Assembly: GCA_002269645.1 (NCBI GenBank)
Contig: NIVC01000441.1
Span: forward strand, 310,001-374,000
DNA: 64,000 nucleotides
Source of the DNA: Macrostomum lignano
Taxonomy: Eukaryota
Direction: 5' to 3'
Shown here in pieces: positions 13,801-56,348 of the stretch (the stretch's first letter is position 1; each line of letters opens with the position of its first letter). The position numbers were made by a program, and so were the translations under genes. The notes beneath the pieces are model-generated. The model was not told the DNA's origin. It ran no database searches and was given only the letters and a program-made list of their open reading frames with translations.

Positions 13801-13842
13801 TTTGCTAAGGTCCATGTTTTAGCTACACTAATTGCTATATGA
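1832..13842. repeat. ~12-kb satellite array, 77-bp monomer with a 74-bp variant (~158 monomers estimated from length)
   Basis: Monomer CAAGCCTTGTTAAATGGTGCTAAA(G/A)TAGCCTACCAT(A/T)TGCTAAGGGCCATG(TTG)TAGCTATACTAATTGCTATATGA; starts at 1832 and 1909 give the 77-bp period. Confidence 0.98.
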
Positions 13843-14479
13843 TAAGTGTCATATATCTAGCAAATATAATACAGTACAGTAAGCATAACCTTAGAAAATA
13901 TGTTATATTATTAAATCACATTGAAAATACACATTTGGCAATTAGCCAAGATGCATAAGATTTTAGCTAGGCCTATGGCATAATATATTGCCTCATATTT
14001 AATAATGTTTGCTTGGCATCTATCTGGTTTTTTTGGCATGAGTGCCATGGCATCCTGATCATACATGCGCAACCCCCCTGATTTACACTGGCCATGCGAC
14101 TTACTTTTTGACCAAAAATGCAACTTACCTGTGAAAGAAACCCTAACGCAATTTTGGGTTAAATGGCAGGAGTAACTATGACTGTCTTATAAGGGCTAAA
14201 TGCCTCGTTATCTAATTAGTACTACATTTGTATTCTTTAGGCTGGGCATTTTTGCAACTTACCCCTGGTGCAGCACAATTTACGGTGGCCAGATCGGCCA
14301 GGTTGGCCAGCAGTTGCGCATGTATGATCCTGATTTTTTGACTTCTTAGATTTGGACCTCTAATACCAAATTGGCACCCTGTTTTTTAGATTAATACCAA
14401 ATTACCAAACTTAAAAAAGAAATAAAATTGTCCATGGTTGATCTAAAATGAGATAGAATTGAATAGACTAGCTATGCAA

Positions 14480-14990
14480 GGCATAACTATGGTTTTGTTT
14501 GTTATATTATTTCTTGTTTCAAATTTGTTCCAGCGCATGTAGAAATGGCTGGACAACCATCAGCTCCTACAACGATCATTCCGGTAGGCAATATTTTGCA
14601 ATATTTTTGCCTGCGTCCGCCTGCAAAGCTGTGCCAACTGGACCTCACGATGAGAGACCTGGCAGCCGTGACAACAGATACGCTGGCTACTATTCATTGG
14701 TTGGCCACCTACAGGCTACTTGCCAATGAACAGTAGTGTGGATGCCAGCTGGGTGCTCAAATACATTTGCAATGCCGAGAAGGTGCCTAGTTTATTGATA
14801 ACTTGGCCTGGGCCTGCAAAGACTATCATGCCCAAGTTTCTATAAGGAAGGGATCTTTTTTGAAGCCAGCCATTTGACCCTGCAGCATCTTTTTTGAACT
14901 TAAAATAATATAACGAGCCATTTCTACATGCGCTGGAACAAATTTGAAACAAGAAATAATATAACTTACAAACAAAACCATAGTTATGCC
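14480..14990. mobile_element. Foldback/MITE-like element with ~72-bp inverted repeats
   Basis: 14480-14550 (GGCATAACTATGGTTTTGTTTG...CATGTAGAAATGGCT) is the reverse complement of 14916-14990 except for a short indel. No coding capacity and no clear TSD. Confidence 0.6.
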
Positions 14991-17340
14991 GCGATGCAAT
15001 ATATTAGGAATTTAGGACTTAGGTTAGAAGCTCCAAGTCAGAGCAATGTTAGGAGCAAATTAAAGATATAAGAATATTCTTAATTTTTTAACTTTTTTAT
15101 TAATGCCACTTGGCATCTTAGTATTCATTTTGGCATTGGGGTTTTTTAATTTTAGGTTTAAGACTGACCTTTTTAATTTTAATTAGGCTCTGTTGCAAAA
15201 GTTTTGACTACTTTGGCTATATAAGGCCTAGGCCTAATGTTCATGAATAAATAAAGGATAAAAAGCAAAAAGATGTCATACTATTCTACTAGCCATAGAA
15301 GTTAGTTAAACAAATTTAAACAAAAATAGGAAAAAGTTCTTAAACAAAAATGATTTAAAGAGCAAATGACAGTGCCTAGTAATGGAAAATACAAAATAAA
15401 AAAACAATTTTTAAATATAAATTTTGTAAGCTTTTGATGACTTGACCAATTTTTCTTTGTATTTATACAAATTAGGGCCTAGATTTATCAAATTAAATAA
15501 AAATACTAAAAAATAAGGCCTATTTTTTAAATCTCATTGGAGTTCTTATATATTAGGCCTAATAGGCCTATATTGGATAGATTAATCTATTATTATAAGA
15601 CTAAGTCTATGAGACAAGCAATTTATAAATTAGTTACTCAATTAGGCCTAGCTAGTATAAGATTAAGAACATTTGCCATTATAGCACAATGATAGATCTA
15701 AGATTTTGGCATTCCTTTGGTTAACAATCACCTCAAACAGTGACGATCACCACTAAAAACAGTTGTGAGACATAAAACCTGACGGTGGTTTCCAATGAAA
15801 AGAAATCAGAAGTTGGCGAACTGACTTTGTTTATTTTAAAAGATGGTAAGACTGTCGTAGCTTATATTTCACCTTCGGTTTACGATCACCTACATGTATT
15901 GCCTATTTAATTGAAATGATTGTGAACCAAAAGCTGGCTGTAGGAAAGCATGTCAAATTTAACAAATAGTGACATGCAGAAAACCATGCTGCTCATTCCA
16001 AATCGAGGGCATCAAAATCCCCCCATCTTTGGTTTACGATTGTCGATTGTTGTGTCACTACACGTGATCGTACCAGCTTCCTAAGAATATTCTGCAGCGA
16101 ACGAGCCTGAGAGTTGGCGTCAGCCCACTGACCGGACTGACTCCGCTACTGAGCGTGGGATCGCGTCGAGGTAAGGCAATCAGTCCGTCCCTAGAGCGTA
16201 CGGTACCCACTTTATACACGAGTCCCAAATGATTAATAAATACAGACGCGAGTCTTACTTATGACCACAGATACTATAAACACTAGATAGGCCACTCAGG
16301 CTAATTTTCTGGGCAAGTTTTTTATTCTACTTTCTGCTTAGTAGCAATGAAAGGAAGCAAAAGTATTATTTGCTAAATTAGACAAATCGAGTGACTGTTT
16401 TTAAGACATCGTTTTGCTAACGCCATAAACAACTAACTTGTTTTGTGCAGTAATGGTGTACATTAAGACGCGACAGACAGTGTGCAATGCCGCTATCTTT
16501 CAAAGTGGAGGAAGGGGGGTAGTCTGGAATAGGGTTAATATCAGTTTCGTATAAGGCAGGGTGAGTGGATCAATAATTTAGGCCTACTGGTGGTGGGATA
16601 GAAAATAAAGGACTGCACATAGCTAGCCTGGGTTAGGGGTGGGGGTTGAGAGGTTGTGGGTTAGAAAATTTGGGGGTGGCGAATCGTGCTTAAATACAAG
16701 CTTATATAGATGAACAGGACAAGAGTCAGAGTTAAAGAAAGTTCGAGTGCATACTAGCTTTTCTATCTAATCTTGTACTCGAGAAATGTTTTGATTCGAA
16801 CCACTGCTGTGCTCCCACTTGCACGAGCTTTGTACTAGTGCTATTAACATCCGAGAAAGAAAAATCCGTTGCGAATGCATTAATTACCAAAAGATGACAC
16901 TGGCGAAGCGCTGGCAGCAGCTACTGCAGGAGCGTGGATATTGACCTTTATAAACAATTAAATCACGGGGCCTCCGTGTGTTCGGCTTGCACTTTATGGA
17001 CGAGGCCTACTGCTGCCTTACAAAGTGCCACGGATGTGCAAGACATCTGTTTTCGCTGGGACGCAATCCCACACCAAGAGTTGATGCTGCCTCGGCTCGT
17101 TCAAATAGACCAGCAACCCTCTGTGCAAAGGACTGATAAACGATGAAGAGGCAGACGACATGTACCCTCCAGTGCTGGGGCCAATTAGCAATCTATCTGC
17201 AGCCGAGCCTGCGACTTGCCTGCTGCCAGTGCTGTGGCAGAGCAACCTTCGGCTACCAGATTCTGCGCCGAGAACAGCTGTTGCGGCTGAAAGCTCTCAC
17301 CTCTGCAGCCGATTCGCGGGTTCCAAGCGCTAGAGGCAAC

Positions 17341-18322
17341 GATCAAGCGGCTGCAGCAACGATCCCGAAAGTGACAGGCGAATCAAGCGGCTGCAGCGGC
17401 AATCCCGAAAGCGACCGGCAAATCAAGCGGCTGCAGCAACGATCCCGAAAGCGACAGGCGAATCAAGCGGCTGCAGCGGCAATCCCGAAAACGACAGGCA
17501 AATCAAGCGGCTGCAGCAACGATCCCGAAAGCGACAGGCGAATCAAGCGGCTGCAGCGGCAATCCCGAAAGCGACCGGCAAATCAAGCGGCTGCAGCAAC
17601 GATCCCGAAAGCGACAGGCGAATCAAGCGGCTGCAGCGGCAATCCCGAAAACGACAGGCAAATCAAGCGGCTGCAGCAACGATCCCGAAAGCGACAGGCG
17701 AATCAAGCGGCTGCAGCGGCAATCCCGAAAGCGACAGGCGAATCAAGCGGCTGCAGCGGCAATCCCGAAAACGACAGGCGAATCAAGCGGCTGCAGCGGC
17801 AATCCCGAAAGCGACAGGCGAATCAAGCGGCTGCAGCGGCAATCCCGAAAGCGACAGGCAAATCAAGCGGCTGCAGCAACGATCCCGAAAGCGACAGGCG
17901 AATCAAGCGGCTGCAGCGGCAATCCCGAAAGCGACTGGCAAATCAAGCGGCTGCAGCGGCAATCCCGAAAGCGACAGGCGAATCAAGCGGCTGCAGCGGC
18001 AATCCCGAAAGCGACAGGCAAATCAAGCGGCTGCAGCAACGATCCCGAAAGCGACAGGCGAATCAAGCGGCTGCAGCGGCAATCCCGAAAGCGACTGGCA
18101 AATCAAGCGGCTGCAGCGGCAATCCCGAAAGCGACAGGCAAATCAAGCGGCTGCAGCGGCAATCCCGAAAGCGACAGGCAAATCAAGCGGCTGCAGCGGC
18201 AATCCCGAAAGCGACAGGCAAATCATGCGGCTGCAGCGGCAATCCCGAAAGCGACAGGCAAATCAAGCGGCTGCATCGGCAATCCCGAAAGCGACAGGCA
18301 AATCAAGCGGCTGCAGCGGCAA
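17341..18322. repeat. GC-rich 40-bp minisatellite (~24 units)
   Basis: Unit AATCAAGCGGCTGCAGCGGCAATCCCGAAAGCGACAGGC(G/A). The 461-aa ORF simply cycles through the three frames of this unit. Confidence 0.95.
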
Positions 18323-18981
18323 CTCTCGATGGTCAAGGCAAGTGCAGCGCAGTCGTGCATCCATGGACTGTGGAGGCGTGGCTAGCGCAGCTTCCAGCGG
18401 TCGACTGGGCGGCAGGGCGCTCGCAGTCAGGGGTGCTCTGGTCAAAGGATGTCATTTCATCAGCAGCTCATTGCAGCTGCACCACAAAAGTCCTGCTGCT
18501 TATCGGCTGCCTGTTACGAAACCACTGAGGATTGGCTCTCCATCGGATACATCCCTGGACCTTGAAGTGGCGCATTCGCCAGTTTTTTTCATCTGTTGGG
18601 CCGTTCTGAATGCTGCCTCTGAACAAGGGCGACTGGCGACCCCCTGTTCTTCGACAGCACGCTGCGAGTTTCACAAACAGATGAGCTGATTAAGATGAGA
18701 AATCTTTCTATTTTGCTACACGAATATGGATTATGGAGTATATGATATAGCTCGTATTTGCTAAATATACAATAGTTGACTGCAATAATATAGCCTTCTA
18801 TGCAATCTAAAGCATTCACAATGTTGCTTTGAACTGTGGAAAGTATAATTATAAGTTTCTTTTTGCAAATAAAATCAATATAATTGCTGCATTGCATTCA
18901 TCTGTTTTTTTATTTTTAAAAAATATAAATAACGCTAAAATGTTTTTACTACTACTAAGCAGAAAGTAGAGTAAAGTGTCG

Positions 18982-20439
18982 TGTTGTGAAAATTAGCTGG
19001 AGTGGCCTATCTAGTGTTTATAGTATCTGTGCTTATGACTTCCAATCAGCACGGCGGTGTGCAAGGCGGCGAATTCAGTTGTATAGTAGCATTGAGATTT
19101 CGATATCACAGTTGAAGTTTATTGATTCTGTAGTGGCAGACGTCAACAGCAACCGATCACCTTGCCCACCGCCAGCAGTGATCTCTATTTATTTAGGCTG
19201 CCTGGCGTAAGCCCTAGGGTTTCACGCAAGACAGCATTATCAACAACCCAGAGCAATACCAATTTGTTGGCCAATCACCTTTGAGGGAGGGGTATAGTAG
19301 CGCATATAGCAAAAAAGGGGGGAATTGACAAGTGCTCAAAAAGGGGGGGCAGAGGGGCCAGGCCAGCCAATCCGGCTGGGAACGCATAATAAGAAAAAGG
19401 GGGGGGGGCAGATAATAAGGGGCTGACACACAACTGGGGGGGGTTTGGCGCAGTCAGAAAGAGGGGGGGGTGTCACGTTATTGGCGTGGTGACTACAACC
19501 CTTTAAAGGGCCGTTTTGACAAGAATTGTCGCTAGGTCGTTGTAGTCCAAAAGTAATTGTGAAGTCAATTCTTGCGAAGCGGATTGTGTAGCGGAGCACT
19601 TGGCGTATAAAGGCAGGGGACTGCCGTAAGCTAATTTATTATCGTTATTAATATGATAATTGATTAATGTCAATACAAAACGTATAGCGTTCTGGGGCAC
19701 TGGCGGCTGCAACAATGGTTTTGAATGTAATTGGAGTTATGAAGTCAGGTAGTTGACGAAAGATGCAGTGGCGACGCAACGTGGTGAGCGATGGCGGTGA
19801 GCACAGTGATGGCAGTGAGCACAGTGATGGCAGTGAGTAGCAAGTAGGCAGGCAGACAAGTAGTGGCGAGATTGGGCGTTAGCCCGTGGCAGTACACGGT
19901 GGAGTAAGAGTGCGTAAACAGGCTGGCCCAGACAGAGGGGGCCGTGGCGAGAGATAAGGAGGCACGAGGCAGACAGGAGAGAGAAGGAAACAAGCTGAGG
20001 CCACAAAGCGAGGAAAAGTGAAAAAAACCCCAGCCCGCCGCCAGGCGGGGTTAATAAAGGAGCGCAGGAGGGTTAACATAATATATGCGGAGAGTTATCA
20101 TTGGCTGGCGAGGGAAAAACAAGAAACAGAAATTATCGATCGCGCGTGACTCTACAGGCGTACGCAAAGCTTACAAAGTACGCAGTGATTTAGCAATTGA
20201 TACAGATTAGTTGCGCGCTACAACAAGTAAACGTGAGAATACACAATTGGAAATTTTTAAATAAGAAATTGTAACGAAAATTGTAGTCCAACGGCCCTTT
20301 TGCGGGACCTCCTTAAACTGGCAACGTCACAGGGGGGTTGACGCAGGCACGCGGCCGGGAGGGGTGGGAGTGCAGTGCCGGGCACACATGACAGAGAGCC
20401 AGAGATTGCTCATCGGTGCAAGTGCACCCAGGCACAACA
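18982..20439 (-). repeat. 3' LTR (~597 bp native, interrupted by an 861-bp solo LTR)
   Basis: Terminal inverted 7-mers TGTTGTG (18982) and CACAACA (20439). 19114-19470 plus 20332-20439 align with 25506-25955. The end at 18982 is inferred from the terminal inverted repeat only. Confidence 0.75.
19471..20331 (+). mobile_element. Solo LTR of a different element inserted into a G-run of the 3' LTR
   Basis: Begins TGTCACGTT and ends AACGTCACA (8/9 inverted match), flanked by G-runs, and absent from the 5' LTR copy. TATAAA at 19606 and AATAAA at 20053 on the plus strand. Confidence 0.8.
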
Positions 20440-20451
20440 CCCTCCCCCACC
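20440..20451 (-). promoter_or_regulatory. Polypurine tract (PPT) of the Gypsy element
   Basis: Minus strand GGTGGGGGAGGG directly abuts the TG start of the 3' LTR. Confidence 0.8.
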
Positions 20452-20570
20452 ACAAAAAGTGGGTTCATACCATAGACTAAAAATTATTTCAACAGGATTA
20501 CGAGAACTGACAAAACCGAAAGCATTAACAAAACAAAAGTCGGATTTAGCCCTGCACCCGAATCACCCCT

Positions 20571-21890
20571 TCAAAGTTTATAAAATTCACGCGCATTTGC
20601 AACTAGCTGAGCCAACAGGGAAAAGTCACGACGCACTTCCGGTAACCAGGCCGCCGCTGCCCGGACATCAGTCGGCTTCCCCGGATTCCCTGATAACGGC
20701 GCAGACGACGCGACGAGCAGGCGTTCCAGCGGTATCCTGTCGACTCGCTTGGCATGCCAGCGACTGTGCGTGAACCGAGCAGTGAACTCAAACTTGAGTC
20801 CCGGCAACGACGCCAGGTAGAGCTCAAGACGATCACCCGGCCAATCTGACGACTCGGTCACCAGGATGCGTCCGTTCTCAAAGCTGCACTCGACCAAAAG
20901 CCGTAAGAATTGATGCCAGGCCGTCCCATCTGACTCGATACGGCCGCTCCGTTTCTCGCGCAGCTGGACCAGCAGGGGTAGATCCCGCCCCTTTGCAAGC
21001 TGCACCTGTAGCCGCAATGCGGCCTTCTGCTGATCCCACTCAATCGTGCCCGTTCGCCTGTCCAGCTCCGCTTCTCCGATGGCTACTACCCTCGGCCACT
21101 CGCCCGCAACGAAACGCCGCAGATTTGCTTCTAATACAGGTGCGAGCGGCGCTGCAGCGGCCCTCAGGCCAAGCGCGAAGTGGACTCGAGTGTCTTCGAT
21201 TAGTCGAGCGGTTGCGGCATTCGAAGGTCGAAGATAGAATGGCGAATTTACCACCGTGACACAGACTTTCATGCCGTCTAGAAACAGACCACCGGCCCAT
21301 GCGTTCAGACGCAACAAGAAGGCGTGCGCATCTATCAGCTCGTCCGTCCGAGCTTCTTCCGACGAGGTCGCACTTCCCAGTAGGTCATCTGCAGCATCAC
21401 CGCCCAGATCCTCTTGCAGGCAGTCCAGGTCGAGGACGTCCGCGGCGTTGACCTCATCGACGCTCTTCTCCGCCCGATCTTCACACCCCTGGTCCGGGGC
21501 TACAAACACTGTTAGCTCGCGCAGCTTCGTTAGCAACACCCCACCGTCCAAGAGGTCACGCCTCTTAATACAGGACAACACGAAGCCGATCGATGCGGTC
21601 AGCGCTTCGTTTGACAAAACTCGACGGCCCCTTCTGGTCGACCCCTGGCGATGCTTCCGCGGCGACACGTCTGACGCGATGAAACTAAGCGCAACTCCTA
21701 TCGCATCGGACAACCACCTGCGGGGTTCTAGGTCTTCAGCCAAGAACAGCTTCTCTAGTCCTTCTAGACACTCCTGCGCCTGAGCAAGTCGACCAACTCG
21801 CAAATGTTGAGCCAGCTGGTTCCTCAGCTTGCGATACGAGGCTTCGATTACCTCCGGGACTCGCTGCGGGCCAGTGCGCTTGACAGTCAT
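20571..21890 (-). CDS. 439-aa protein: unknown helical N-terminal domain, acidic linker, and a TatD-like (amidohydrolase TIM barrel) domain predicted to be catalytically impaired
   Basis: TatD-like motifs: LIDAHAFL, RVHFALGL, VVAIGEAELD, QQKAALRLQVQLAKGRDLPLLVQLR, IPLERLLVASSAP, ANAREFYKL. The ORF is uninterrupted. Confidence 0.8.
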   Translation of the reverse strand: MTVKRTGPQRVPEVIEASYRKLRNQLAQHLRVGRLAQAQECLEGLEKLFLAEDLEPRRWLSDAIGVALSFIASDVSPRKHRQGSTRRGRRVLSNEALTASIGFVLSCIKRRDLLDGGVLLTKLRELTVFVAPDQGCEDRAEKSVDEVNAADVLDLDCLQEDLGGDAADDLLGSATSSEEARTDELIDAHAFLLRLNAWAGGLFLDGMKVCVTVVNSPFYLRPSNAATARLIEDTRVHFALGLRAAAAPLAPVLEANLRRFVAGEWPRVVAIGEAELDRRTGTIEWDQQKAALRLQVQLAKGRDLPLLVQLREKRSGRIESDGTAWHQFLRLLVECSFENGRILVTESSDWPGDRLELYLASLPGLKFEFTARFTHSRWHAKRVDRIPLERLLVASSAPLSGNPGKPTDVRAAAAWLPEVRRDFSLLAQLVANAREFYKL

Positions 21891-22315
21891 GACCCAGCCT
21901 CCCGGTTCGCGACTTCGGTTGGCAGTGAGTCAGACTCGCCTTCGTCATCACTGATCACAACGAACCCCATTCGCTCCAACCCTTCCTTCACTTCACTCGG
22001 GAAACTGACCCCTTGCGGGGGGCTGAAAAGCTGCGCGTAAGCCAGGGTGTTTGACATTGCTGCTTCTCCGAACTTATCATACAGCGCCCTGTAAAATGGG
22101 TCACTCAGGACAGAGTGCGCGAAAAATATTCTCTGAAACGCCTCTGTACCTCCGATGCTGACTTTGTCGGGGTGCATCGCCAAGGAGCGCTGCCGGAACG
22201 CCGACTTTATTTGCCTCTGGGACGCTGACCGTTCCACACCCAGCAGGTCGTAAAGATCCGACACTGCAATGGCAGGCCGATTCGGAACACGGGGTCTCCA
22301 GAGTAACTCTGCCAC
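21887..22315 (-). CDS. J-domain (DnaJ/Hsp40-type) protein; no in-frame ATG (GTG start or spliced)
   Basis: DLYDLLGVERSASQRQIKSAFRQRSLAMHPDK...AFQRIFFAHSVLSDPFYRALYDKFGE, with the HPD motif intact. Confidence 0.88.
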   Translation of the reverse strand: MAELLWRPRVPNRPAIAVSDLYDLLGVERSASQRQIKSAFRQRSLAMHPDKVSIGGTEAFQRIFFAHSVLSDPFYRALYDKFGEAAMSNTLAYAQLFSPPQGVSFPSEVKEGLERMGFVVISDDEGESDSLPTEVANREAGS

Positions 22316-22496
22316 TAACCCACGCGTACAGTAACCAGCTATTTGTACGAGCTATTATTTACCCATTACGGTACATAGCAGTTCCGAGCGCACTTGAGAA
22401 CTCTCACGTAGCACATATTTCTGACGATTTTTATTAATTTTTATTGTTTTTATTTGACTCAACGCCCTGACTGGGCTGCTCAGGTGCCCAGCTCAG

Positions 22497-25400
22497 TCAG
22501 TACAATATTGGGCTACCGAACCGTCGAGGCGGGACGCCCCTATTAGCACGAGCTGGGCGCCCTTGGTGTACCGGAGGAGGTTCCGTCTGACCTTCCGGGT
22601 GGGTCACTCTTCGAGCCCAAATGGCATCCGGTACGTAATCGTCATACGCAGCGGTCTGCTCAAGATCGGGCGTCGTCAGCAACGGGGGGTCGGGTGGTGC
22701 CCGGCGGGAGTGTCGCTCAGGGTCCCTGACCCTACCCTCTGCACGACGTTTTTCCCGAGCCGGCGGACGCCATTGCCTGGAGTTTGCGTCGACTTTCCTT
22801 AAGTTATTGTAATGGACGACTCTCGGCCTACGAGCCCCTTCGTGCATTATTTTGAAATTTACATCGGAAACTTTCTCTAAGACTCGCGCTGGACCTTTCC
22901 AGTAACGGTGGAACTTCGGTATTTCGTTTGGTTTTATCACCGGATCATCATACTCTAAAACCAGGTCTCCCTCTCAAATTTCAACGCCGCGAGCCCGACC
23001 GTCGTACATGTAGAACTCCTTCTGTTTCCGCTGGTAGGTTCTGAGGTTCTCCCTCACTGCCTCATGCGCCCGCTGAAGATTGTCAGCTAAGCGATGGGTG
23101 AACTCTGGGTAACTCTCAAATATCCGCTCACTTAAGAAATCTATATCAACAGGGAGCTGCATCTCTCGGGCAAACATGGTGTAATGCGGCGTGTATCCAG
23201 TGCCTCTGTGCACGCTTGAGCGGTATGCTAGCAGACTGCAGTCTTCTCAGTCCTTATTCTCTTGCTCTAACTGGCACATCAGCATGTGCTTCAGCGTGCG
23301 ATTGAAACTCTCTGCCTGGCCGTCGGCCATCGGATGATACGGTGTTGTTCGGCATTTGCGGATGTCTAACAGCGTGCATAGACTCTTCATCAGGGCCGAT
23401 TCAAAGTTTGATCCCTGGTCCATGACGATCTCCCGAGGGCAGCCGAACGATGAAATCCAGTGCGTGAAGATCGCACGGGTCACCGTCTTTGCCCTCTGGT
23501 TTGACCAACGTGACAGCGCAGGGCCACTTGCTGAACGAATCTTGAATAGTTAACACAAATCTTGACCCCTTTCTTTGACTTAGGTAGCGGTCCGACTATG
23601 TCGCACATAATTCTCTGACACTGCGCGGAGCTTGGGATCGGTTGGAGAGGTGCTTTGTTTCTTTGCCCTGGCTTGCACTTTGAGCACACGAGGCATGTCC
23701 GGCAGAACTCTTCAACCTTGCGGGACAGTCCCGGCCACCAAAACCGCTGTTTGAATTTCGCTTGTTTTTTTTAATTCCTAGGTGACAGCCGCTTGCACCA
23801 TCGTGTAAGATTTTGGCGACTTCCTCGAAGAGACAGTCAGGCAAGACTATTTTTTCCGCGAGGTGCCTGGAACTCGAATTAGGAAGAGTTCATCGTCCAC
23901 TTCTATCTGATTTCGGTGGGCCCAGATTTCTCTCATGGTTGGGCTGATGATTGGGTCTATCTGCGTGTCCTTCCATCTAAAAACTGCCTTATTCGTACCA
24001 GGGCTGGATCTTGACTTTGAACCTCCTTGAGATAATCTTTGTTTAGCAGCGAAGCCAGCATTACGTTTACCTGTTCTTTAACTAGGGGTGGACTGCTGCA
24101 TGTTGGGCACGAGTCTTGAGCCCAATGCCGTCGAACTTTCCGCGAAAGGCTATCCGCATTCTGATGGAAAATTACCTTCCTGTGCGAGATCTCAAAGTCG
24201 TAACGCTGCAGCGTCTCAAGCCATCTAGCACATTGCCCCTCGACGTCCTTAAGATTTGTCAACCACGAGAGAGCGCTATGGTCTGTCCGTATCTTAAATT
24301 TCCTTGCCAGCAAATAGTACTTGTACAGCTTTACGAAGTGAACTATCGCTAGGAGTTCTAGTCTGGTACTACAGTAGTTTCTTTCACAATCTGCCAGCGA
24401 CCTGGATCCATAGGCAATGACGCGCTCTGACCCATCGGGTTGGCATTGTGACAAGACTGCACCGATCCCAATCTTTGAGCTGGCGTCGGTGTCCAGCACA
24501 AACGGTCCAGCTCCCTCGGAAAAGTCTGGATAGGCCATGATCTCCGCTGATGTTAGCGATTGCTTGAGTTCGGAAAACGCCTGCTGTTGTTCTGGGCCCT
24601 AAATAAACTGTGAGTCCTTGCGCATGAGCTTGAACAACGCGGCTGCCTTTACTGAGAAGTCATTCACGGAATTTCTGTAGTAGGAGCAGAGGCCCAAAAA
24701 TGACTGCAGTTCTTTTATATTCTTGAGTGTGGGCCAGTTTCTAATTTCTTCTGTCTTCGCAGGATCTGTCGCAATACCTTCAGACGATACGACATGCCCT
24801 AAGAACTTGGCTTCCTTGGACAAGAAATGGCATTTCTTGGCTTTCAAACGGATCCCAGCAGTTCGTAAGCGATCGTAAACATGCTGCAGCCGCTCGAAAT
24901 GCTCTTTGTAAGACTTTGAAAAAACTATTATATCGTCGAAATATACAAGACAATCTCTCCATGTCAGACCAGCCATGACAAGGTTCATCAGCTTGACGAA
25001 AGTCGCCGGGGCATTTCTTAGCCCAAAACTCACATATCGCCAGGCGAACTGACCTCTATTTGGAACTACGAATGCCGTCTTAAGTTGGTCTTTAGGATCT
25101 AGCGGGCACTGGTGATAGCCTGAAGCCAAGTCTAGAGTTGAAAAAATAGCATTTCCTGCAAGTGCTTCTAAAGTTTCATCCATTCGCGGCGGCGGAAATG
25201 GGTCAGGATTGGTTACTTCGTTTAGCCGGCGATAATCCAGGCACAGCCTAATGGATCCGTCCTTCTTCCGTACAGGTACGACCAGGCTAACCCACGGGGA
25301 TTGACACTGGTAGATCCTACCGCAGTCTATTAGCCTGTCGATTTCTTTATTGATTTCTGGCCTTATGTGCGGCGGGATGCGGCGTGGTGGTTCTCTAGTT

Positions 25401-25500
25401 GGCCTGGCGTCCCCGGTGTCTATGGTATGCATTGCCTGGTCAGTTGAACCCAGCTCGCTATCGTCCTTGGCGAAGACATCTCTGTGAATGAGAATGAGAA
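22497..25500 (-). pseudogene. pol: Gypsy pol (RT - RNase H - integrase) with several frameshifts, 5' truncated
   Basis: RT (LCLDYRRLN, LDLASGYHQ, FGLRNAPATF, YFDDII); RNase H (LDTDAS, YCSTRLELLAIV, RTDHSAL, NADSLSR); INT zinc finger (HDGASGCH) and core (DQGSNFES, TTPYHPMADGQAE); C-terminal WKGP...VVHYNNL. Spread over about 6 ORF fragments. Confidence 0.92.
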
Positions 25501-25505
25501 TGACG

Positions 25506-25955
25506 GAAGTTTATTGATTCTGTAGTGGCAGACGTCAACAGCAACCGATCACCTTGCCCACCGCCAGCAGTTCTCTATTTATTTAGGCTGCCTGGCGTAA
25601 GCCCTAGGGTTTCACGCCAGACAGCATTATCAACAACCCAGAGCAATTACCAACTTGTTGGCCAATCACCTTTGAGGGAGGGGTAGCGCATATAGCAAAA
25701 AAGGGGGGAATTGACAAGTGCTCAAAAAGGGGGGGCAGAGGGGCCAGGCCAGCCAATCCGGCTGGGAACGCATAATAAAAAAAAGGGGGGGCAGATAATA
25801 AGGGGCTGACACACAACTGGGGGGGGGGGTTTGGCGCAGTCAGAAAGAGGGGGTTGACGCAGGCACGCGGCTGGGAGGGGTGGGAGTGCAGTGCCGGGCA
25901 CACTTGACCGAGAGCCAGAGATTGCTTATCGGTGCAAGTGCACCCGGGCACAACA
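25506..25955 (-). repeat. 5' LTR, truncated at its 3' end and fused directly to pol sequence
   Basis: Aligns with the 3' LTR with a few substitutions and indels. The last ~130 bp of LTR, the PBS, gag and protease are missing. Confidence 0.8.
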
Positions 25956-26228: not shown

Positions 26229-26602
26229 AGTAGTAGGTAAAACAACGCTTCTAGACCCAGAGCACTTTTTTAATAGCAGTTTTAAGGGTCTAGAGGGGGG
26301 ACACGAGGGGGTAATAAAAAAACACATCTAAACACCCTTAACACATCTAATCACCCATAATCACCCACAACACATCTAAACACATCTAATCAATAAAAAT
26401 CACCTCCAACACTCCCCCTCGTGTCCCCCCTCTGGAACCTTATAAACGGCCATTAAAAAAGGTCTGATCTAGAAGCGTACTTTTACCTACTACTACTCTA
26501 CCCAACACATCCAACACTTCCAATTCTCTATAACACTTCCAATTCTCTATAACCCCTCGCACGCGCCGCAGGCGCGAAGGGTCTTTTTCTGTTACTAAAA
26601 AT
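26229..26602 (+). repeat. Left TIR of Maverick (374 bp)
   Basis: Reverse complement of 43388-43761; no differences seen on visual comparison. Confidence 0.95.
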
Positions 26603-26915
26603 GACCAGAGTTTACACCTTTTCTGTTAGTGATACTTTTGAGACTGTTGCTAAAAATGCAGAGATAATAAAACAACATATTTTGAATGGAATAATTGATG
26701 AAGTTTATTTGAAGTATGACGACAAGCATGACCTAAAACTTTATCCATTAGAGTTGGATGAGATGTATGATTTAGAACAAGAGGGAGAGTTAATATTTCA
26801 ACTTGGAGATTATTTAAATTCGGATGATTGGGAGGTTCGTTCAGACGATTCCAACTCAACAAATAGCTCATATGAAACTAGTGATTCTGAGAATGAAATT
26901 GAAATTTTTATGTGA
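26601..26915 (+). CDS. Maverick small acidic hypothetical protein (104 aa)
   Basis: AAAAATG start context, D/E-rich ORF; no family recognised. Confidence 0.55.
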   Translation: MTRVYTFSVSDTFETVAKNAEIIKQHILNGIIDEVYLKYDDKHDLKLYPLELDEMYDLEQEGELIFQLGDYLNSDDWEVRSDDSNSTNSSYETSDSENEIEIFM

Positions 26916-26929
26916 AAAAAATATTAAAA

Positions 26930-27156
26930 AAATGAACTATTATTCTATAACAGAAACAACATTTATTATGAAAAATATATATAAAAAAATGAAGGTAAAC
27001 TACTCCTACATCGGAAATGTGCCGATTAATGAACTTAATGAAAATTTAAGTTTGATATCTGTTGAACAAATGTCAATAATTATATTAGTTACAATAATAG
27101 TAATAATATTGTTTTTGTTTGTTATAAAAAATTTACTACCATGTTGTCTCAAGTAA
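26930..27156 (+). CDS. Maverick small single-pass membrane protein (start uncertain)
   Basis: C-terminal hydrophobic stretch IIILVTIIVIILFLFVI followed by KNLLPCCLK. Confidence 0.4.
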
Positions 27157-27166
27157 TTGTTCGAAC

Positions 27167-28317
27167 TTAGTTCGCTGATATTAGTTGGTTCTCATAAAAC
27201 GAACCTAATATTTCTTCACCATCCTTATCAGCAATTATATAGGTTGTAGGATTTGTATTTAAAACTTTACTGATGGTAAATTTCTCACTTATCTTCCAAT
27301 ATCCTTTTCTTCCTTTTTCAAACTTATCTTTCCATTTATAGATATAAACAGAATCACCAACTTTAAAATCTTTAGTTTTCTTTTTTTCAAATTCTCCAAA
27401 AGTAACTTTAACGTTTTCAGGATTGTTATAAGCTTGTTGAGGAGTCATCTTTATAGCCGAATGATATGAATTATTATAATCTTTCACGACGTCTGGTAAT
27501 ATTTTTACCCACTTTTGGTTTCCATTAAGACTAAACTGAAACCACAATTTCTTACCTAAAGTTCGATTAAATCTTTCAATTAATGCATTTTTGCTTTCTC
27601 CATAAATAGAATAAATTTTATTAATATACTCCCCATTCGCGTCTTTTTTCCTTTCTTGTCCTTTTTCAAAATGATATAATTTATACATATGAGGATTGTA
27701 AAATTCTTTTCCCTCATCAACACACAAGCGTTCGCTTTTTTCATCAAGACTTCTAAAAGCAGCAGCAACCTCCTCACCTTTTTTGGATTTCAAAGGAACA
27801 GCCCACGCGTATCGAGTAAAACCATCTAGTATGGTTAAGATATATTTATATCCTCTTTCATTTGGCATCGACATTAAATCAGCATACCAAATTTCGTTCT
27901 TTTTGAAGTTCATGATTTTTCTATAAAATTTAGGTTTTCGATATTCTTTATGAAGAATCTTTGCCTCATCAGAACTTAACCCACCACCACTTAATAGCAA
28001 ACACTCAACACAATTATTTCCATGTTGGTTGTAATTAATTCCCAAACCAAATTTAACTTTAGATTGCAAGATTTTTTTAACCATCCACCGAGTTAATCTT
28101 TGGCCTACTGTTAATCCCTGTAAATTATCTAATCCTTGAATCATTTTTTGATCGGCTTCATGTTTTAATCTTAATGCTTCCTCAGGAGAATTCTTATCAG
28201 CATCTCTGTATGCTAAGTCATGATAGTATGCTAACCAATCAATGCCGTTAATGGGAATTGAATCAGCTTTTGGAGTGTCATCAGGATTTAATCGGAGATC
28301 GAGTCGAGTCAACCCGG
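27167..28317 (-). CDS. INT: Maverick rve (DDE) integrase fused to the C-terminal part of a parvovirus-like PLA2 domain
   Basis: WYADL, YILTILDGFTRYAWAVPLK, CVDEGKEF, ALIERFNRTL and a C-terminal FKVGDSV...GEEILGSFY motif. PLA2-like PINGIDWLAYYHDLAY upstream. Confidence 0.92.
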
Positions 28318-28641
28318 CCTTTTTACCTTTGCTTTCACAAAGGAGTAGACTGTGTCTTAAGCTATCATAAGGATTGACTAAGTCCCTCAAGCCCACCAGC
28401 GTACAGTCGTTGCATCTCAACCATACTCAAGTCATACGAGGTTAGGTTTTCGATTCACTCTTGTCCATATATATCTTCAAGCTTGTTACCGTTGGGAACA
28501 GGAGTTACCTGTGTTCCTTCAGAAGATTTCTCAACTGAAGTGGTACTTGAAGCTTTAGGAGATTGAGTGAGCGGCTGGTGTTGCCACTAATAGTGACTAG
28601 CAGTAGGTTTGCTTCTACCACTCGGGCACAGCTCGAGCTCC

Positions 28642-28770
28642 ACCCGTGAAATTATGAGATGGTAGGTGTAATTCATTTGTATACCTTCCAGTAGTAAAAA
28701 CGCTTGGTAAGCTTGTTAATCCTTTTTGAACATCTAAAAATCCTCCTTCAAATACTAATTGATTGCTCAT
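28642..28770 (-). CDS. N-terminal piece of the PLA2-integrase gene, separated from the rest by a 324-bp insertion
   Basis: MSNQLVFEGGFLDVQKGL...TGRYTNELHLPSHNFTG with an AAAAATG start; the expected continuation PGT-RLDLRL lies at 28317. Confidence 0.7.
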
Positions 28771-29368
28771 TTTTAATAGCCTTAAAAATACACGATAGCA
28801 CCAATTGTTTTGCAAATTCTTCAATGGTTGGTTGTTTATCATTTTTTGAAATATTATCTACAGCAACTAAGTATCTTTTATTTCTCCAATTTTCAGACTT
28901 TTTAATTTGTTCTTCATCGCGATAATCATATGAAGAAGCAGGAATAAAATGATCAACATGTAAAACACCAATATAATCTTTTGGGACATAATAACGTTTT
29001 GTGAAATTTAAACAATCAGTAAAGAATTCAATTGAGCAACCAAGGTAATCAATAGTATGATTATTTTTTCGAGTATTATTAGATTTTAGAAGAGAATTTA
29101 TTCTACATCTGGTGTTTTTTATATTTCTAAAATTTTCATCAGTTAATCTTCTTTCGTTTTCATATTTTCTGCGGCTTTCTAGATTATTTTTATCGTATTC
29201 TTTTTTCCTTTGAAGCTTATATTCACGATTTTTCTCATACCATTCTTTATCATACTTTCTCTCACAAGGTTTGCAAATACTATAATATCTATTTTGATCT
29301 CTACGAAATCTAAACTCAAACAAAAATTTCTCTTCTTTACACTTAGTACAAACCTTTTTAGTTTCCAT
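28748..29368 (-). CDS. HNH endonuclease-like protein with an N-terminal Zn ribbon
   Basis: CTKC...CKPC, then YLGCSIE...LHVDHFIP...NWRNKRYLVAVDNISKNDK, a pattern typical of large-DNA-virus and phage free-standing HNH nucleases. Confidence 0.8.
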   Translation of the reverse strand: METKKVCTKCKEEKFLFEFRFRRDQNRYYSICKPCERKYDKEWYEKNREYKLQRKKEYDKNNLESRRKYENERRLTDENFRNIKNTRCRINSLLKSNNTRKNNHTIDYLGCSIEFFTDCLNFTKRYYVPKDYIGVLHVDHFIPASSYDYRDEEQIKKSENWRNKRYLVAVDNISKNDKQPTIEEFAKQLVLSCIFKAIKNEQSISI

Positions 29369-29425
29369 TTTATAAAAAATAAATTTAACAATTAATTAAT
29401 TAAACCGAACCTTTGGTTCGCGACC

Positions 29426-30097
29426 CTACGGGGCGATTCCAGTATGTCCAGCAGCTTTCGCAGCAGCTAAAACAAGTTTTCGCGGAGTTTTAAATCCTTC
29501 TCCAACAGCCGGTTTGTTATTTATAGAATCAACAAGCCTTTTATATAAACTTGTGTTTTTAACAGCTCTTACTCCTAACTCATCATAAAAAATTTTAGCA
29601 CTTACTAATTCATCTCTAGTATATAATTCCGGGTTAAATTTTACCCTAGGGTTGGTAATAATATTAAATGCTCTACCCAATTCTCTATATAGTTCATTCC
29701 GATTTTTAACAACCTCACCAATTCGATAATTACCATCATGTAAATCTGTCACAGCAATACTAGGTGGTGCAGGTCTTGGATATTCATCAACACCACCCCT
29801 TTCTGCAGCCCTAATTTCTGCAACTCTCAATAATGCTTGATCGGCCTCATAAGTAGGCGGCTCATCCTCCTCATCTTTTGGTTCGGTATTCTTAGCAATT
29901 TTTTCCAGAAGGTCTTTATCTGTTTTTTCTAGTTCACTAATTTTCCCCGTAATAGGATTAACAAAAGGAGCAGCAAATCTTTCACCCGCTAATTGTATTC
30001 CTAACTTTCTTTTTTGTAAATTTCTAACAAAATCAGAATATCTTTGCTTCTCTTTATAAATCGCCAACTCTCCATCAACGTCCATAAATTGACTCAT
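29426..30097 (-). CDS. Maverick hypothetical protein (223 aa)
   Basis: Long ORF with an AAAAAATG start, divergent from the MCP; no family recognised with certainty. Confidence 0.7.
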   Translation of the reverse strand: MSQFMDVDGELAIYKEKQRYSDFVRNLQKRKLGIQLAGERFAAPFVNPITGKISELEKTDKDLLEKIAKNTEPKDEEDEPPTYEADQALLRVAEIRAAERGGVDEYPRPAPPSIAVTDLHDGNYRIGEVVKNRNELYRELGRAFNIITNPRVKFNPELYTRDELVSAKIFYDELGVRAVKNTSLYKRLVDSINNKPAVGEGFKTPRKLVLAAAKAAGHTGIAP

Positions 30098-30131
30098 TTT
30101 TTAACATAAAAAACTTTTTTAACATAAAAAA

Positions 30132-31604
30132 ATGGCTGAAACAAAAACTATATGGAGTGATAAATTTCATTTCAAAAAGCATCGTCAGTATATTAATGAA
30201 GTCAGAGCAAGAGATTTAAATTTTACCCTACCAACAAGTGATAATTCAAATAACTTTACTACCGGAACGGTAACTTTTGACATCGGTGCAACCAACACCA
30301 TATTGGATATGAAAAATGCGTTTTTCCGTGTTAGATGGTTGTATACTAGAAATGATGGAACTGATCTTGCAGCCGGTGATATCGCAGATCGTTCTGGAAT
30401 AATAATAGAAAATGATTGGTTTTATAAATGTTTTTCCCAAGCACAACTATCAGTTAATGGAGCCGAGGTTGAGACAGCATCAAACCCCGCAGAGATTAAT
30501 GGAGTTTTGAAACATTTAAATTATACTTATTTATCAAAACAAGTTGGTGATAATGTTGGGTGGATGCCTGATAAGGGTAATGGTCAAGCAGTAGTTTTCC
30601 CTAATGTACAAAACGCAGCTGGTGCAGATACCGCAGCTCTTATAGCTTATCTTAATACCAATATAGTTCCAGTTGTAACCACCATGACTAATACAAAAGA
30701 TATTAATACAGGTTTTATAGATCGTCAGAATAAATTCCCAGTCGCGGTTTTAACCACTGCAACCGCATATGAGCAAGACTTTTCAATCTTTCCACTATTT
30801 GGGTTCTTCTCACCAAATCGGGTATGGAAAGGATTAAAATTTGGGATACAGTTGCAAATATCTGGTGGATATCAGCCTAGGATACTTTATGGAACCTCAA
30901 TTTCAACCGATATAGCAGTTCGTATAGATTCAATTCAATTAGTCGTGCCAACTCTTGAGGTAACAGCCCCGCTTTTAAAACATGTTGATAATCAATTAAC
31001 CCATGATCAGGAAATATTTTATTTGAATCGTCGACATTTTATGCGAACCATTAATAATAATCAGGATTCATTCCAGTGGCAGATAATTACATCAAAACGT
31101 CGGGTGAGATATATTTTTGTTTGGTTTAAAATAACAAACAGAAGGAGTAAAAGAGCAAATGGGGATTTATATTGGCTTCAATCCGGTGCCATAGCAGAAC
31201 AAGCAGCCACCGCAACAGACAATGCGGCTGCAGCTATTAACGAGTTTAATGTTCAGAATATCCGCCTGCAGGTTGATGATCAATATTATCCGGTTAAAGA
31301 CCCCCTTAATCTAAACATAGCAAATAATAATGTTAATGATTTTATAAAATATTATCAAGATTATGTCAAAAATGAAGCGTATGCAGTCCCTCAGTACACA
31401 CCCACAGAGTTTCTAAACATTCATCCAGTGGTTGTTTATGATCTAACGGCACAGAAAGAAAACGTAGCCAATGTTGGACTTAATTACATGTTAGAGATTA
31501 ATAAAACCGGCAATCAGGCAATCGACGCCCACGTATTGTTTCTAGAGGAATATATGTCAATTGCTAAAGCTGATGGCACGATTGTTCGGGACGCTCCTAT
31601 TTAA
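30132..31604 (+). CDS. MCP: Major capsid protein (double jelly-roll)
   Basis: 490 aa, beta-rich. TFDI...LDMKNAFFRV...TRNDGT, FSQAQLSVNGAEVE and PLFGFF...KGLKFGIQL match the Polinton MCP pattern. Upstream of ATPase and mCP. Confidence 0.85.
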   Translation: MAETKTIWSDKFHFKKHRQYINEVRARDLNFTLPTSDNSNNFTTGTVTFDIGATNTILDMKNAFFRVRWLYTRNDGTDLAAGDIADRSGIIIENDWFYKCFSQAQLSVNGAEVETASNPAEINGVLKHLNYTYLSKQVGDNVGWMPDKGNGQAVVFPNVQNAAGADTAALIAYLNTNIVPVVTTMTNTKDINTGFIDRQNKFPVAVLTTATAYEQDFSIFPLFGFFSPNRVWKGLKFGIQLQISGGYQPRILYGTSISTDIAVRIDSIQLVVPTLEVTAPLLKHVDNQLTHDQEIFYLNRRHFMRTINNNQDSFQWQIITSKRRVRYIFVWFKITNRRSKRANGDLYWLQSGAIAEQAATATDNAAAAINEFNVQNIRLQVDDQYYPVKDPLNLNIANNNVNDFIKYYQDYVKNEAYAVPQYTPTEFLNIHPVVVYDLTAQKENVANVGLNYMLEINKTGNQAIDAHVLFLEEYMSIAKADGTIVRDAPI

Positions 31605-31619
31605 ATTATTTCTTTAAAA

Positions 31620-32378: not shown

Positions 32379-32392
32379 TTCCCACTATAAAA

Positions 32393-33178: not shown

Positions 33179-33188
33179 AACTGTAAAA

Positions 33189-33365
33189 ATGGGTAACCAT
33201 TCTGGAGCGTTAAAAAAACAATCAGATAAAGTTCAAAACGCAAAGGAATATTATGAAATCGAATTAACAAAATTGAAACAATTACAGGCAGAAAAAATCC
33301 GAAAGGAACTGTTAAAATCTAAACCTACGAAACTAACTAAAACCAAGAGTTTTTCAGGAACATAA
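33189..33365 (+). CDS. 58-aa basic protein, absent from the ORF track
   Basis: TAAAAATG start; MGNHSGALKK...KTKSFSGT*; fills the gap between mCP and the protease exactly. Confidence 0.5.
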   Translation: MGNHSGALKKQSDKVQNAKEYYEIELTKLKQLQAEKIRKELLKSKPTKLTKTKSFSGT

Positions 33366-33366
33366 A

Positions 33367-33843: not shown

Positions 33844-33910
33844 AGTTCGATCGGACGAAGTCCGCGACCCTACGGGGCGATTTTAGATTCTATAAAATAG
33901 ACAGTAAAAA

Positions 33911-35784: not shown

Positions 35785-35799
35785 ATATTTATATATAAA

Positions 35800-37249: not shown

Positions 37250-37276
37250 TTTTTTGTTATTTTTTTAGATTAAAAA

Positions 37277-37609: not shown

Positions 37610-37625
37610 ATTTTTTTATAAGAAA

Positions 37626-41909: not shown

Positions 41910-41993
41910 TTTATAGAATAGAATTTATATAATGTTTGAATTATTGATTTTTTAATTTTGTGTTTTTGGTGTCCAGACCCACCCCCCAGGAGC

Positions 41994-42968: not shown

Positions 42969-42978
42969 TTTTATATTG

Positions 42979-43377: not shown

Positions 43378-43387
43378 TTTTTGTTCT

Positions 43388-56230: not shown

Positions 56231-56348
56231 CAAATGTCGCTGTGCCAGCCTTGCTACCATAGACAAAAGCACCGTTACATTGGCAGACTTATCTTGGATT
56301 AGATTTAATGTATGCGCACGACTACTAAATATACTTCAATCTATCTTA

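Follow-up and report, generated by a model that had tools for sequence, protein, structure and literature searches.

What is a Gypsy retrotransposon doing with a J domain and a TatD-like fold encoded between pol and its 3' LTR? The question is raised by one insertion in the window, the 64,000-nucleotide stretch of Macrostomum lignano DNA analysed here. Additional ORFs have been described in the env position, but no J domain or TatD fold there was found in the literature searched.

The insertion and its third ORF

A Pfam scan supported the Gypsy identity given to the element by the initial annotation, as RT, RNase H and integrase are all encoded by a minus-strand pol. The element comprises the following features:

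25506..25955, minus strand: 5' LTR, 95% identical to the corresponding pieces of the 3' LTR
22497..25505, minus strand: broken Gypsy pol with RT, RNase H and integrase (Pfam RVT_1, RT_RNaseH, Integrase_H2C2, rve, Integrase_p58_C)
20440..20452, minus strand: polypurine tract, read from the sequence; relatives have the same tract
16048..20439, minus strand: interrupted 3' LTR, three pieces of which match the uninterrupted 3' LTR of copy C525; its end reads ...CAACA, then ATCG
20331-19471: solo LTR inside the 3' LTR
19031-16266: TIR element inside the 3' LTR, with an 8-bp target duplication

As annotated, the 5' LTR starts at 25955 and the polypurine tract precedes a 3' LTR that starts at 20439. 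The end of the element had been misplaced at 18982; the 3' LTR ends at 16048 and is followed by the 4-bp target duplication ATCG, which is also found at 25959-25956, beside the 5' LTR. Paired LTRs (TG...CA) with a target duplication, as expected of Ty3/Gypsy, are thus present in the window, and distinct 4-bp target duplications were seen in 6/6 family-B and 4/4 C150-type copies checked. The 5' LTR is truncated at ~25506 and passes straight into RT, the deletion having taken the LTR end, PBS, gag and protease; gag and PBS are present in relatives. Pol is frameshifted, as had been reported, and is also broken by stops (about seven lesions in all, compared with an unbroken relative); it ends at 22497. 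The order PR-RT-RH-INT is complete in all four unbroken relatives scanned, of which the window keeps RT-RH-INT. None of four pol proteins scanned had the chromodomain at the integrase C-terminus that is a chromovirus trait, and the LTR starts of families A and B had no match among the six families in supplement 5 of PMC12801592. As an insertion of a Gypsy retrotransposon, the copy in the window is decayed and dead.

Downstream of pol, the following features were identified:

22351-21887, minus strand: J-domain frame (PF00226, HPD present)
22264..22271, minus strand: splice-acceptor-like motif just before the J domain, with no in-frame ATG after it in the window lineage
22076..22258, minus strand: N-terminal J domain of ORF3 with HPD (PF00226, E 7.8e-17; dN/dS 0.09 against C471)
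21941..21961, minus strand: SIM-like hydrophobic-then-acidic motif VVISDDE in the ORF3 linker; the same motif occurs in families A, D and F
21867..21940, minus strand: interval with the one-base frameshift that splits ORF3, one base shorter than in C471 and C340
21890-20571, minus strand: 439-aa frame (PF01026)
21498..21854, minus strand: ORF3 five-helix domain with a basic loop (five helices in a predicted model), common to all seven families
20571..21341, minus strand: C-terminal TatD-like TIM barrel of ORF3 (PF01026; 2/8 active-site positions kept)

These frames had been taken for two uninterrupted ORFs making up a two-gene cassette. Neither description survived: the J frame has no ATG ahead of its J domain, and relatives have a single ORF3. 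Compared with C471 and C340, whose frames continue across the interval, the window lacks one base in the stretch bounded by two conserved anchors; C471/C513 and the C340-type copies have ORF3 in one frame apart from lesions of their own. Family B, which is young (LTRs 99.2-100% identical), has ORF3 as one 571-codon frame, and a frame of 571-575 codons was present in 10 of its 19 matches. We are highly confident that the J and TatD frames of the window belong to a single third ORF that a one-base frameshift has split. An assembly error was ruled out, since C525, ~98% identical and on a separate contig, has the same shift. C525 is the same insertion as the window, with the same flanks and target duplication, and the split is therefore seen in a single insertion (n = 1); independent insertions (C471, C340, family B) are continuous. 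It is very improbable that the split is real in the window sub-lineage, as two coupled genes with overlapping stop and start (ATGA). The stop of the J frame does overlap the start codon of the 439-aa frame, neither frame contains any other stop although pol has about seven lesions, and C525 has the same split; however, C525 shares a pol stop with the window too and adds no second insertion, sister copies have a Leu codon where the 439-aa ATG lies, the second frame still resembles the sister protein upstream of that ATG, and every other family has ORF3 in one frame.

A J-domain protein in seven Gypsy families

Seven Gypsy families in the genome, with RTs 49-61% identical to that of the window, have an ORF3 3' of pol. 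Its core consists of the J domain, an acidic linker and the five-helix domain, the last belonging to no known family; families C-G have such a J and helical-domain ORF3 after pol. To this core are added a TatD-like tail in sister families A and B, which form one RT clade (support 98/95), and a chromodomain in family E. TatD, present in 2/7 families, is therefore a tail and not the core that it had been taken for. At 19 of 20 loci fetched for a J match (class representatives, chosen non-randomly), same-strand pol pieces lay upstream, and almost every copy fetched had the module linked to pol or LTRs of Gypsy type. The proposed element-encoded accessory module is thus real, being linked to Gypsy and under purifying selection, with dN/dS mostly 0.07-0.35. 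Values for the window against C471 (J 0.09, helical 0.07, TatD 0.14) are near saturation, with pS near 0.7, and the window is saturated against family B. Since wider comparisons are saturated or nearly so, the claim of selection is carried by within-family pairs: 0.29 (0.17-0.52) for ORF3 of family B, 0.10 for the J domain and 0.26 for the helical domain of D, 0.32 for the chromodomain plus helical part of E, and 0.25 for ORF3 of F. Intervals include 1 for ORF3 of family G and for the TatD part of family B alone (0.41-0.47).

In the same D and E pairs, synonymous divergence was 0.51-0.78 for ORF3 versus 0.16 for RT, and the window is 95-96% identical to C150, C222 and C252 in RT but only 66-69% in TatD. 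Because ORF3 and RT divergence disagree, ORF3 versions have been exchanged between pol backbones. Moreover, ORF3 is missing from several young lineages and is therefore accessory; its close ORF3-less relatives are young and mobile, with LTRs 98.7-100% identical. That a single ORF3 is shared by seven families, with modular add-ons, purifying selection, exchange, ORF3-less young lineages and loss of most TatD active-site residues, is shown with high confidence.

The J domain with intact HPD noted in the window was confirmed, and HPD is present in 6/7 families. J domains above the Pfam cut-off with HPD (the class C criterion) were found in the window and in families C-G; that of family B is under the cut-off and lacks HPD. 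Hsp70 recruitment, as the initial annotation proposed, is plausible with HPD in so many families, and ORF3 is predicted to be a J-domain protein that recruits this host chaperone. The linker motif resembles the SIM consensus; the pattern was defined after the sequences were seen, occurs in its strict form in only 3/7 families, and has 0 occurrences in 6,077 aa of gag/pol. Such acidic motifs can alternatively be kinase sites. LxCxE was absent from 10/10 ORF3 pieces scanned.

The most constant part of ORF3 is the helical domain, whose profiles from families A/B and C-F matched each other with a probability of 97.6 (E 4e-12). It received no Pfam or PDB assignment, and no Pfam family was common to more than one of ten members. 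Its PDB sequence matches are designed helical proteins, and its model had a best Z of 7.8, to unrelated helical repeats, and no Foldseek match at E<=0.001. The basic loop holds 6-8 K/R in 16 residues. The family E chromodomain (PF00385, E 1.4e-12) lies inside ORF3, not at the integrase C-terminus, and one of its three cage aromatics seems to be missing.

An AG lies 0-16 nt ahead of the J start in 7/7 families and immediately precedes the ATG in D, E and F, which makes the site a putative splice acceptor. At the J start of the window lineage an ATG is missing, a point against the adaptor reading given below. Contigs from four runs, which are RNA by guess only, span the whole family-B element and contain no splice joint, a result that argues neither for nor against splicing. 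ORF3 is not the membrane glycoprotein with signal and transmembrane segments that characterizes errantiviruses: top 19-residue hydropathy in ten pieces was 0.81-1.49, below the threshold of ~1.6 for membrane segments, giving no strongly hydrophobic segment, and Pfam scans of the elements found no env family.

The TatD-like tail

The TatD-like fold described in the 439-aa frame is real (PF01026, E 1.1e-7, above the curated cut-off) and is backed by Pfam, a PDB profile search and Foldseek. In the structure check that had been suggested, a predicted family-B model (mean pLDDT 55) had TatD structures as its top Foldseek matches (E about 2e-5; 17 matches at E<=0.001, TatD-led). We scored the active-site positions HxH or GxN, His, Glu, His, His, Glu and Asp. 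Of these eight metal and phosphate ligands, lineage A keeps two and family B one; each is kept in 48-53 of 53 microbial TatDs, and host TatD exons keep those visible in them. The domain is probably a pseudo-nuclease, judging from its residues. Given the lost active-site residues, the binding or decoy role that had been suggested would suit it better than catalysis. A still active nuclease, trimming cDNA or RNA:DNA intermediates, is unlikely. The central glutamate is kept in 4/4 copies aligned and, among single-residue losses in TATDN1, its loss is the only one that reduced both activities (PMC10085689, excerpt), and a conserved Glu replaces one His; however, 6-7 of eight positions that are nearly invariant in the 53 microbial TatDs have been replaced together, including the Asp whose loss cuts TATDN3 30-fold.

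The ORF3 barrel resembles the cellular TatD nucleases YcfH, YjjV, TATDN1 and TATDN3 in its TIM-barrel fold and motif order (PMC10085689, excerpt), and an HxH remnant persists in lineage A. It differs from them in keeping 1-2/8 active-site positions and in being fused to J and helical domains; the nearest stand-alone TatDs among the matches listed are about 25-30% identical. With the TatD profile, host exons scored 6-11 bits versus 37-59 bits for microbial TatDs, but since this sets partial exons against matches selected by that same profile, we claim no donor.

Outside relatives were scarce. Queries with the 439-aa protein of the window and with ORF3 of family B gave no match in word-indexed searches, which covered near lengths only, and the six matches of a full phmmer scan were two chimeric gene models containing family-B ORF3 and four generic TatDs. 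The TatD-domain profile had 253 matches, of which the 120 listed, none better than E 1e-10, all belong to stand-alone TatDs. An Atlas search returned no usable match for family B and generic DnaJ clusters under 0.9 for family D, and no ORF3 relatives were found in viral or metagenome contigs. No prior description of this ORF3 family was found in the literature searched: nothing was found on Macrostomum LTR retrotransposons with DnaJ, and nothing relevant on TatD with gypsy retrotransposons. Neither DnaJ nor TatD is mentioned in the main texts of PMC12801592, PMC8775202, PMC6338049, PMC6431247 and PMC13547354. The supplements of PMC12801592 have no mention of TatD and name DnaJ 13 times in a gene table, at least two of these being a host transcript.

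A candidate nuclear Hsp70 adaptor

HPD is needed for Hsp70 stimulation, and Hsp70, which dismantles native complexes, is a target that J proteins of phages and polyomaviruses hijack (PMC13254874, PMC11720896; excerpts); in Drosophila, piRNA-guided silencing rests on SUMO-SIM contacts (10.1101/2021.07.27.453956). By analogy with the T-antigen J domain of polyomaviruses, which does so for its own targets, ORF3 may act in trans in the nucleus as an adaptor through which Hsp70 reaches silencing complexes marked by SUMO or heterochromatin; we make this proposal tentatively. ORF3 would be made from a spliced subgenomic RNA, its basic loop would direct it into the nucleus or let it bind nucleic acid, and the SIM-like motif, chromodomain or dead TatD barrel would serve for docking, whether on chromatin that is SUMOylated or methyl-marked or on nucleic acid of the element itself. 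HPD would then stimulate Hsp70 to dismantle the bound complex, loosening host silencing, and ORF3, acting in trans, could also serve relatives that lack it. Family B, a young family with an intact TatD-bearing ORF3, would need a modified mechanism, because HPD and the SIM-like motif are absent there. To the explanation as a whole, namely a dead copy with a split ORF3 whose working form would be a nuclear Hsp70 adaptor that loosens silencing, we assign a probability of about 0.45.

The acceptor-like site in 7/7 families and the K/R-rich loop would also fit a Rev- or CERV-like protein, made from spliced RNA, that binds unspliced element RNA through an arginine-rich loop while Hsp70 remodels the RNP so that it can leave the nucleus; a dead TatD barrel would be able to bind nucleic acid in single-stranded form, and CERV of Cer1 is a precedent (PMC10309623, excerpt). 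Such a role has perhaps one chance in five by our reckoning, as CERV is required for export, yet young lineages lack ORF3, and a chromodomain would not be expected. The first objection is softened in the C150 type, which lost the acceptor too and therefore would not need export help.

The initial annotation favoured particle assembly or RT folding. Hepadnaviral RT is activated by Hsp70/Hsp40, and HPD is present in 6/7 families. Viruses also use Hsp70 for their own folding needs (PMC13254874, excerpt). A cytoplasmic co-chaperone for Gag assembly or RT folding and priming is nevertheless less likely than a nuclear role because young, mobile lineages do without ORF3 and the added parts (chromodomain, SIM-like motif) are of chromatin type and suggest a nuclear site of action; ORF3 has also been swapped independently of RT. 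We rank this reading slightly below export.

In chromoviruses, integration is steered by chromodomains. An LEDGF-like integration tether, whose helical domain, a compact five-helix bundle in the model, would bind integrase while the chromodomain or TatD barrel reads the target, could draw on this and on the chromodomain's listing as an accessory domain (PMC6338049). We consider it improbable: the J domain would be superfluous for tethering, and ORF3 moves between integrase backbones. Among the fold matches listed for the helical domain, none was of IBD or TFIIS-N type.

The adaptor reading has several known counterparts. Juno and Vesta of bdelloid rotifers are likewise Gypsy-like, with captured enzyme-derived ORF3s in the env position (DEDDy exonuclease, GDSL esterase; non-env), lineage-specific gain and loss, and expected expression from spliced messages; those ORF3s retain their catalytic residues and have no reported J domain in the excerpt (PMC5408684), whereas here a constant J and helical core, a dead-looking nuclease fold and clear purifying selection were found. 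Polyomavirus large T antigen and phage J proteins (Rki) share with ORF3 a layout in which an HPD J domain at the N-terminus precedes a disordered or acidic stretch and targeting parts, and are parasite-encoded hijackers of host Hsp70 (PMC11720896, PMC13254874; excerpts), but they belong to DNA viruses, not retroelements, and ORF3 lacks LxCxE, so the analogy is functional only. CERV of C. elegans Cer1 is also a nuclear accessory protein of a Gypsy element, from spliced RNA, but is required for RNA export, and the excerpt mentions no J domain (PMC10309623). VANC of plant MuDR is a transposon-encoded anti-silencing factor from a captured host-type domain; unlike ORF3 it belongs to plant DNA transposons, is sequence-specific and, in the excerpt, has no J domain (PMC13547354).

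M. lignano is a transgenic model whose LTR elements exploit the heat-shock response through promoters (PMC12801592). Canonical heat-shock elements were found in none of six LTRs scanned from ORF3 families, which would therefore tap the same machinery at the protein level. It is possible, if doubtful, that this is an animal LTR retrotransposon clade with a modular, swappable, T-antigen-like J-domain anti-silencing effector, in which chromodomain and dead TatD would be alternative aiming parts and ORF3-less elements cheaters served in trans. To our knowledge, few element-encoded counter-measures to chromatin silencing are known in animals. A conserved Hsp70 co-chaperone in seven families, with interchangeable targeting parts and ORF3-less relatives as natural controls, makes the anti-silencing question testable.

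Structure and surroundings of the window copy

By the features tested, the minus strand of the window carries a Ty3/Gypsy element that is not a chromovirus. Its pol, in which RT, RNase H and integrase domains are recognizable, is interrupted by stops and by frameshifts, the latter as the initial annotation reported. The features are as follows:

25955-25506, minus strand: 5' LTR, directly adjoining RT
22351-21887, minus strand: J-domain frame (PF00226, E 7.8e-17)
21890-20571, minus strand: 439-aa frame (PF01026, E 1.1e-7)
20439-16048, minus strand: 3' LTR, with a 4-bp target duplication at its end and two nested elements inside

The 5' LTR abuts RT because a deletion removed the LTR end, PBS, gag and protease; this copy is dead. 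A polypurine tract and then the 3' LTR follow the 439-aa frame, and the element extends to 16048 rather than ending at 18982 as proposed. Within the 3' LTR, an 861-bp solo LTR of another family (TG...CA; 19471-20331) sits in a run of C, and a 2.77-kb TIR element (16266-19031) has an 8-bp target duplication and holds a 40-bp tandem array. Neither nested element occurs in contig C525 of the same genome, where flanks and target duplication are the same as those of the window copy; therefore, the two are the same insertion.

A young-looking Polinton/Maverick-like element (26229-43761) lies ~270 bp upstream of the Gypsy 5' LTR. It has 374-bp terminal inverted repeats (100% complementary) and a 6-bp target duplication. 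Its coding content comprises an integrase, an A32-type ATPase, a match resembling adenoviral protein X, and a 1,319-aa ORF in which an endonuclease VII domain is found. Satellites surround the Gypsy element: positions 1700-16000 and 49500-64000 contain a long tandem array of a 74/77-bp repeat and numerous shorter ones (20, 22, 25, 27, 30 and 34 bp).

A single third reading frame in seven Gypsy families

Domain matches confirm the J-domain and TatD-like frames; their proposed status as two separate, uninterrupted genes is not supported. The window's J frame has no ATG ahead of the J domain, and similarity of the second frame to the sister protein extends upstream of its ATG, which aligns with a Leu codon in sister copies. 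In those copies, on contigs C471/C513 and C340/C518/C3879, one frame spans the J domain and the region after it, and the ISDDE-to-PRVPE interval is one base shorter in the window and C525 than in C471 and C340. In the young family B, whose RT is 61% identical, gag is present along with a ~1,340-aa pol and, in 10 of 19 matches, a single J-helical-TatD frame of 571-575 codons; its LTR pairs are 99.2-100% identical at 12 of 14 fetched loci and target duplications were distinct in all six copies checked. Since sister copies and family B are continuous and the ATG aligns to Leu, the split is, judging from sequence, most simply a lesion, comparable to the pol stop common to the window and C525. The J-frame stop overlaps the start of the 439-aa frame, which leaves a small chance of a genuine coupled gene pair in the window's sub-lineage, against which the continuous frame of both sister groups and family B argues. 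We refer to the frame as ORF3.

A genome search with the J region gave 150 scored matches among 228 candidates. Beyond the window's lineage (A) and B, these included multicopy classes whose frames measure 322, 332/361, 333, 327 and 292 codons, at about 19, 23, 21, 5 and 5 places, as grouped by score and frame length with only some places fetched. ORF3 is thus not confined to the window copy but occurs in seven families (A-G), and the proposed linkage to Gypsy pol and LTRs recurs: same-strand pol pieces lay upstream of the J match at 19 of 20 loci fetched as class representatives, and, where both LTRs were in view, these were mostly 99-100% identical. Of 30 loci retrieved around the first DNA and TatD matches, 25 had same-strand pol pieces; another four are truncated but retain the element's LTR, and the last is a fragment.

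In all these classes, a J domain and an acidic linker are followed by a C-terminal domain whose homologue in the window protein is the middle part (A/B vs. C-F profile match: probability 97.6, E 4e-12). This domain is predicted to form five helices with a basic loop, and structure and sequence comparisons gave no specific match. Family E has a chromodomain inserted in the linker (PF00385, E 1.4e-12), found also in two relatives. The TatD-like tail is confined to A and B. In a 14-row RT tree these two group in a single clade (support 98/95), consistent with one gain of the tail. The PBS common to A, B and G (L061:1195-1212 and relatives) resembles the tRNA-His 3' end. Of the seven families, only B lacks HPD. 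A VVISDDE-like motif, which we take to resemble a SUMO-interacting motif (SIM), is shared by families A, D and F but was not seen in 6,077 aa of gag/pol, the pattern having been set post hoc.

An AG lies 0-16 nt upstream of the J start in all seven families; in D, E and F it directly abuts the ATG. Since a YAG would occur by chance in 11-56% of the upstream 19-nt windows, the weight rests on these three exact placements. The phase of the putative acceptor varies among families, as would suit a leader that is not translated; in lineage A, the J start lacks an ATG. Two public Macrostomum lignano gene models (P0003 and P0004) contain family-B ORF3 spliced into chimeric proteins, both entering at an acceptor just before its ATG, and this may be why ORF3 escaped notice. 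Paired copies of these elements fit the genome redundancy that PMC12801592 describes.

No part of ORF3 resembles a transmembrane segment; therefore, ORF3 is not an Env, and the window element is not an env-bearing one. Profile and structure comparisons identify a TatD fold in the tail of A and B, which departs from TatD nucleases at the active site: of eight positions nearly invariant among 53 microbial TatDs, A keeps two and B one. The glutamate that is retained is, in TATDN1, the single residue that matters most (PMC10085689), so residual nuclease activity is possible.

Two loci depart from these arrangements. L088:1469-3024 (contig C1874; similar match at C853) has a decayed lineage-A-like J and helical-domain remnant and, downstream in the same orientation, a 355-aa frame that carries a P-loop NTPase motif in place of TatD, either a third cargo or an unrelated insertion. 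At L087:2200-5496 (C506), a family-G deletion fuses protease-RT-RNase H in frame with ORF3, giving 1,099 codons.

Selection, exchange and loss of ORF3

Pairwise dN/dS (NG86) between the window and C471 was 0.09 (J), 0.07 (helical) and 0.14 (TatD), with pS near 0.7. Family B gave 0.29 (0.17-0.52) and 0.34 for whole ORF3 vs. 0.15 for RT and 0.11 for integrase; D gave 0.10 (J) and 0.26 (helical), E 0.32 (chromo+helical), F 0.25 and C 0.18 (J). Values in most families indicate purifying selection, with weaker results for family-G ORF3 (0.36; 0.13-1.11) and the family-B TatD part alone (0.41-0.47), whose intervals include 1. The window and C525 gave 0.53 for ORF3 and RT alike, as expected because their divergence follows insertion.

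Synonymous divergence in D and E pairs was 0.51-0.78 for ORF3 and 0.16 for RT, and the window is 95-96% identical to C150, C222 and C252 in RT and 66-69% in the TatD part. Old ORF3 versions have therefore recombined onto near-identical pol. Four young insertions from the window's own lineage, independent of one another, have lost most of ORF3, and only five of 20 further RT-close loci showed ORF3 parts; ORF3 is therefore dispensable in cis. In C150-type copies, a deletion has taken out the acceptor together with the J and helical domains and half of the TatD part. Among the other 15 loci, B has a young sister and C a young relative; the more distant 53% families and some truncated copies are also represented. 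The young lineage with RT 95-96% identical to the window's comprises L015-L020, L053-L054 and L108 (C150, C2475, C109, C222 and C3798). The B sister family (L090-L094 and L109; C23, C4067, C382, C1445, C1405 and C952; RT 85%, young LTRs) yielded no J, helical or TatD match; an unrelated frame of ~200-250 codons with no Pfam match follows its pol.

Possible role of ORF3

Literature searches and term look-ups, which did not extend to Repbase, Dfam, GyDB or subscription journals, gave no retrotransposon with an ORF for a J domain or TatD, and limited searches found no relatives outside this genome. These families were probably already counted by RT in PMC12801592, most of whose family sequences fell outside the comparison. 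Among known cases, the Juno and Vesta elements of rotifers come closest, with an ORF3 that was captured and is not an env (PMC5408684). In terms of function, the nearest analogies are T antigen, CERV (PMC10309623) and VANC (PMC13547354).

Selection and pol linkage support the accessory module of the initial annotation, in a one-gene form. Spliced RNA would yield a soluble ORF3 protein, whose J domain would stimulate Hsp70 while the remaining parts select the target. We suggest, with a probability of roughly 40%, that ORF3 is an anti-silencing factor. J proteins, which phages and polyomaviruses hijack, steer Hsp70 to dismantle native complexes (PMC13254874; PMC11720896), and the piRNA silencing platform of flies is built by SUMO-SIM contacts (10.1101/2021.07.27.453956). 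A role in RNA export is unlikely, and one as an integration tether very unlikely. Chaperoning of the particle or RT, as initially suggested, seems rather improbable, given that ORF3 is non-essential, potentially usable in trans, frequently swapped and furnished with presumed chromatin-reading add-ons; a counter-defence factor fits this combination better than a core assembly factor. The main case left unexplained by the anti-silencing reading is family B, which lacks HPD and the SIM-like motif, and whose ORF3 may be a binding-only or decoy form.
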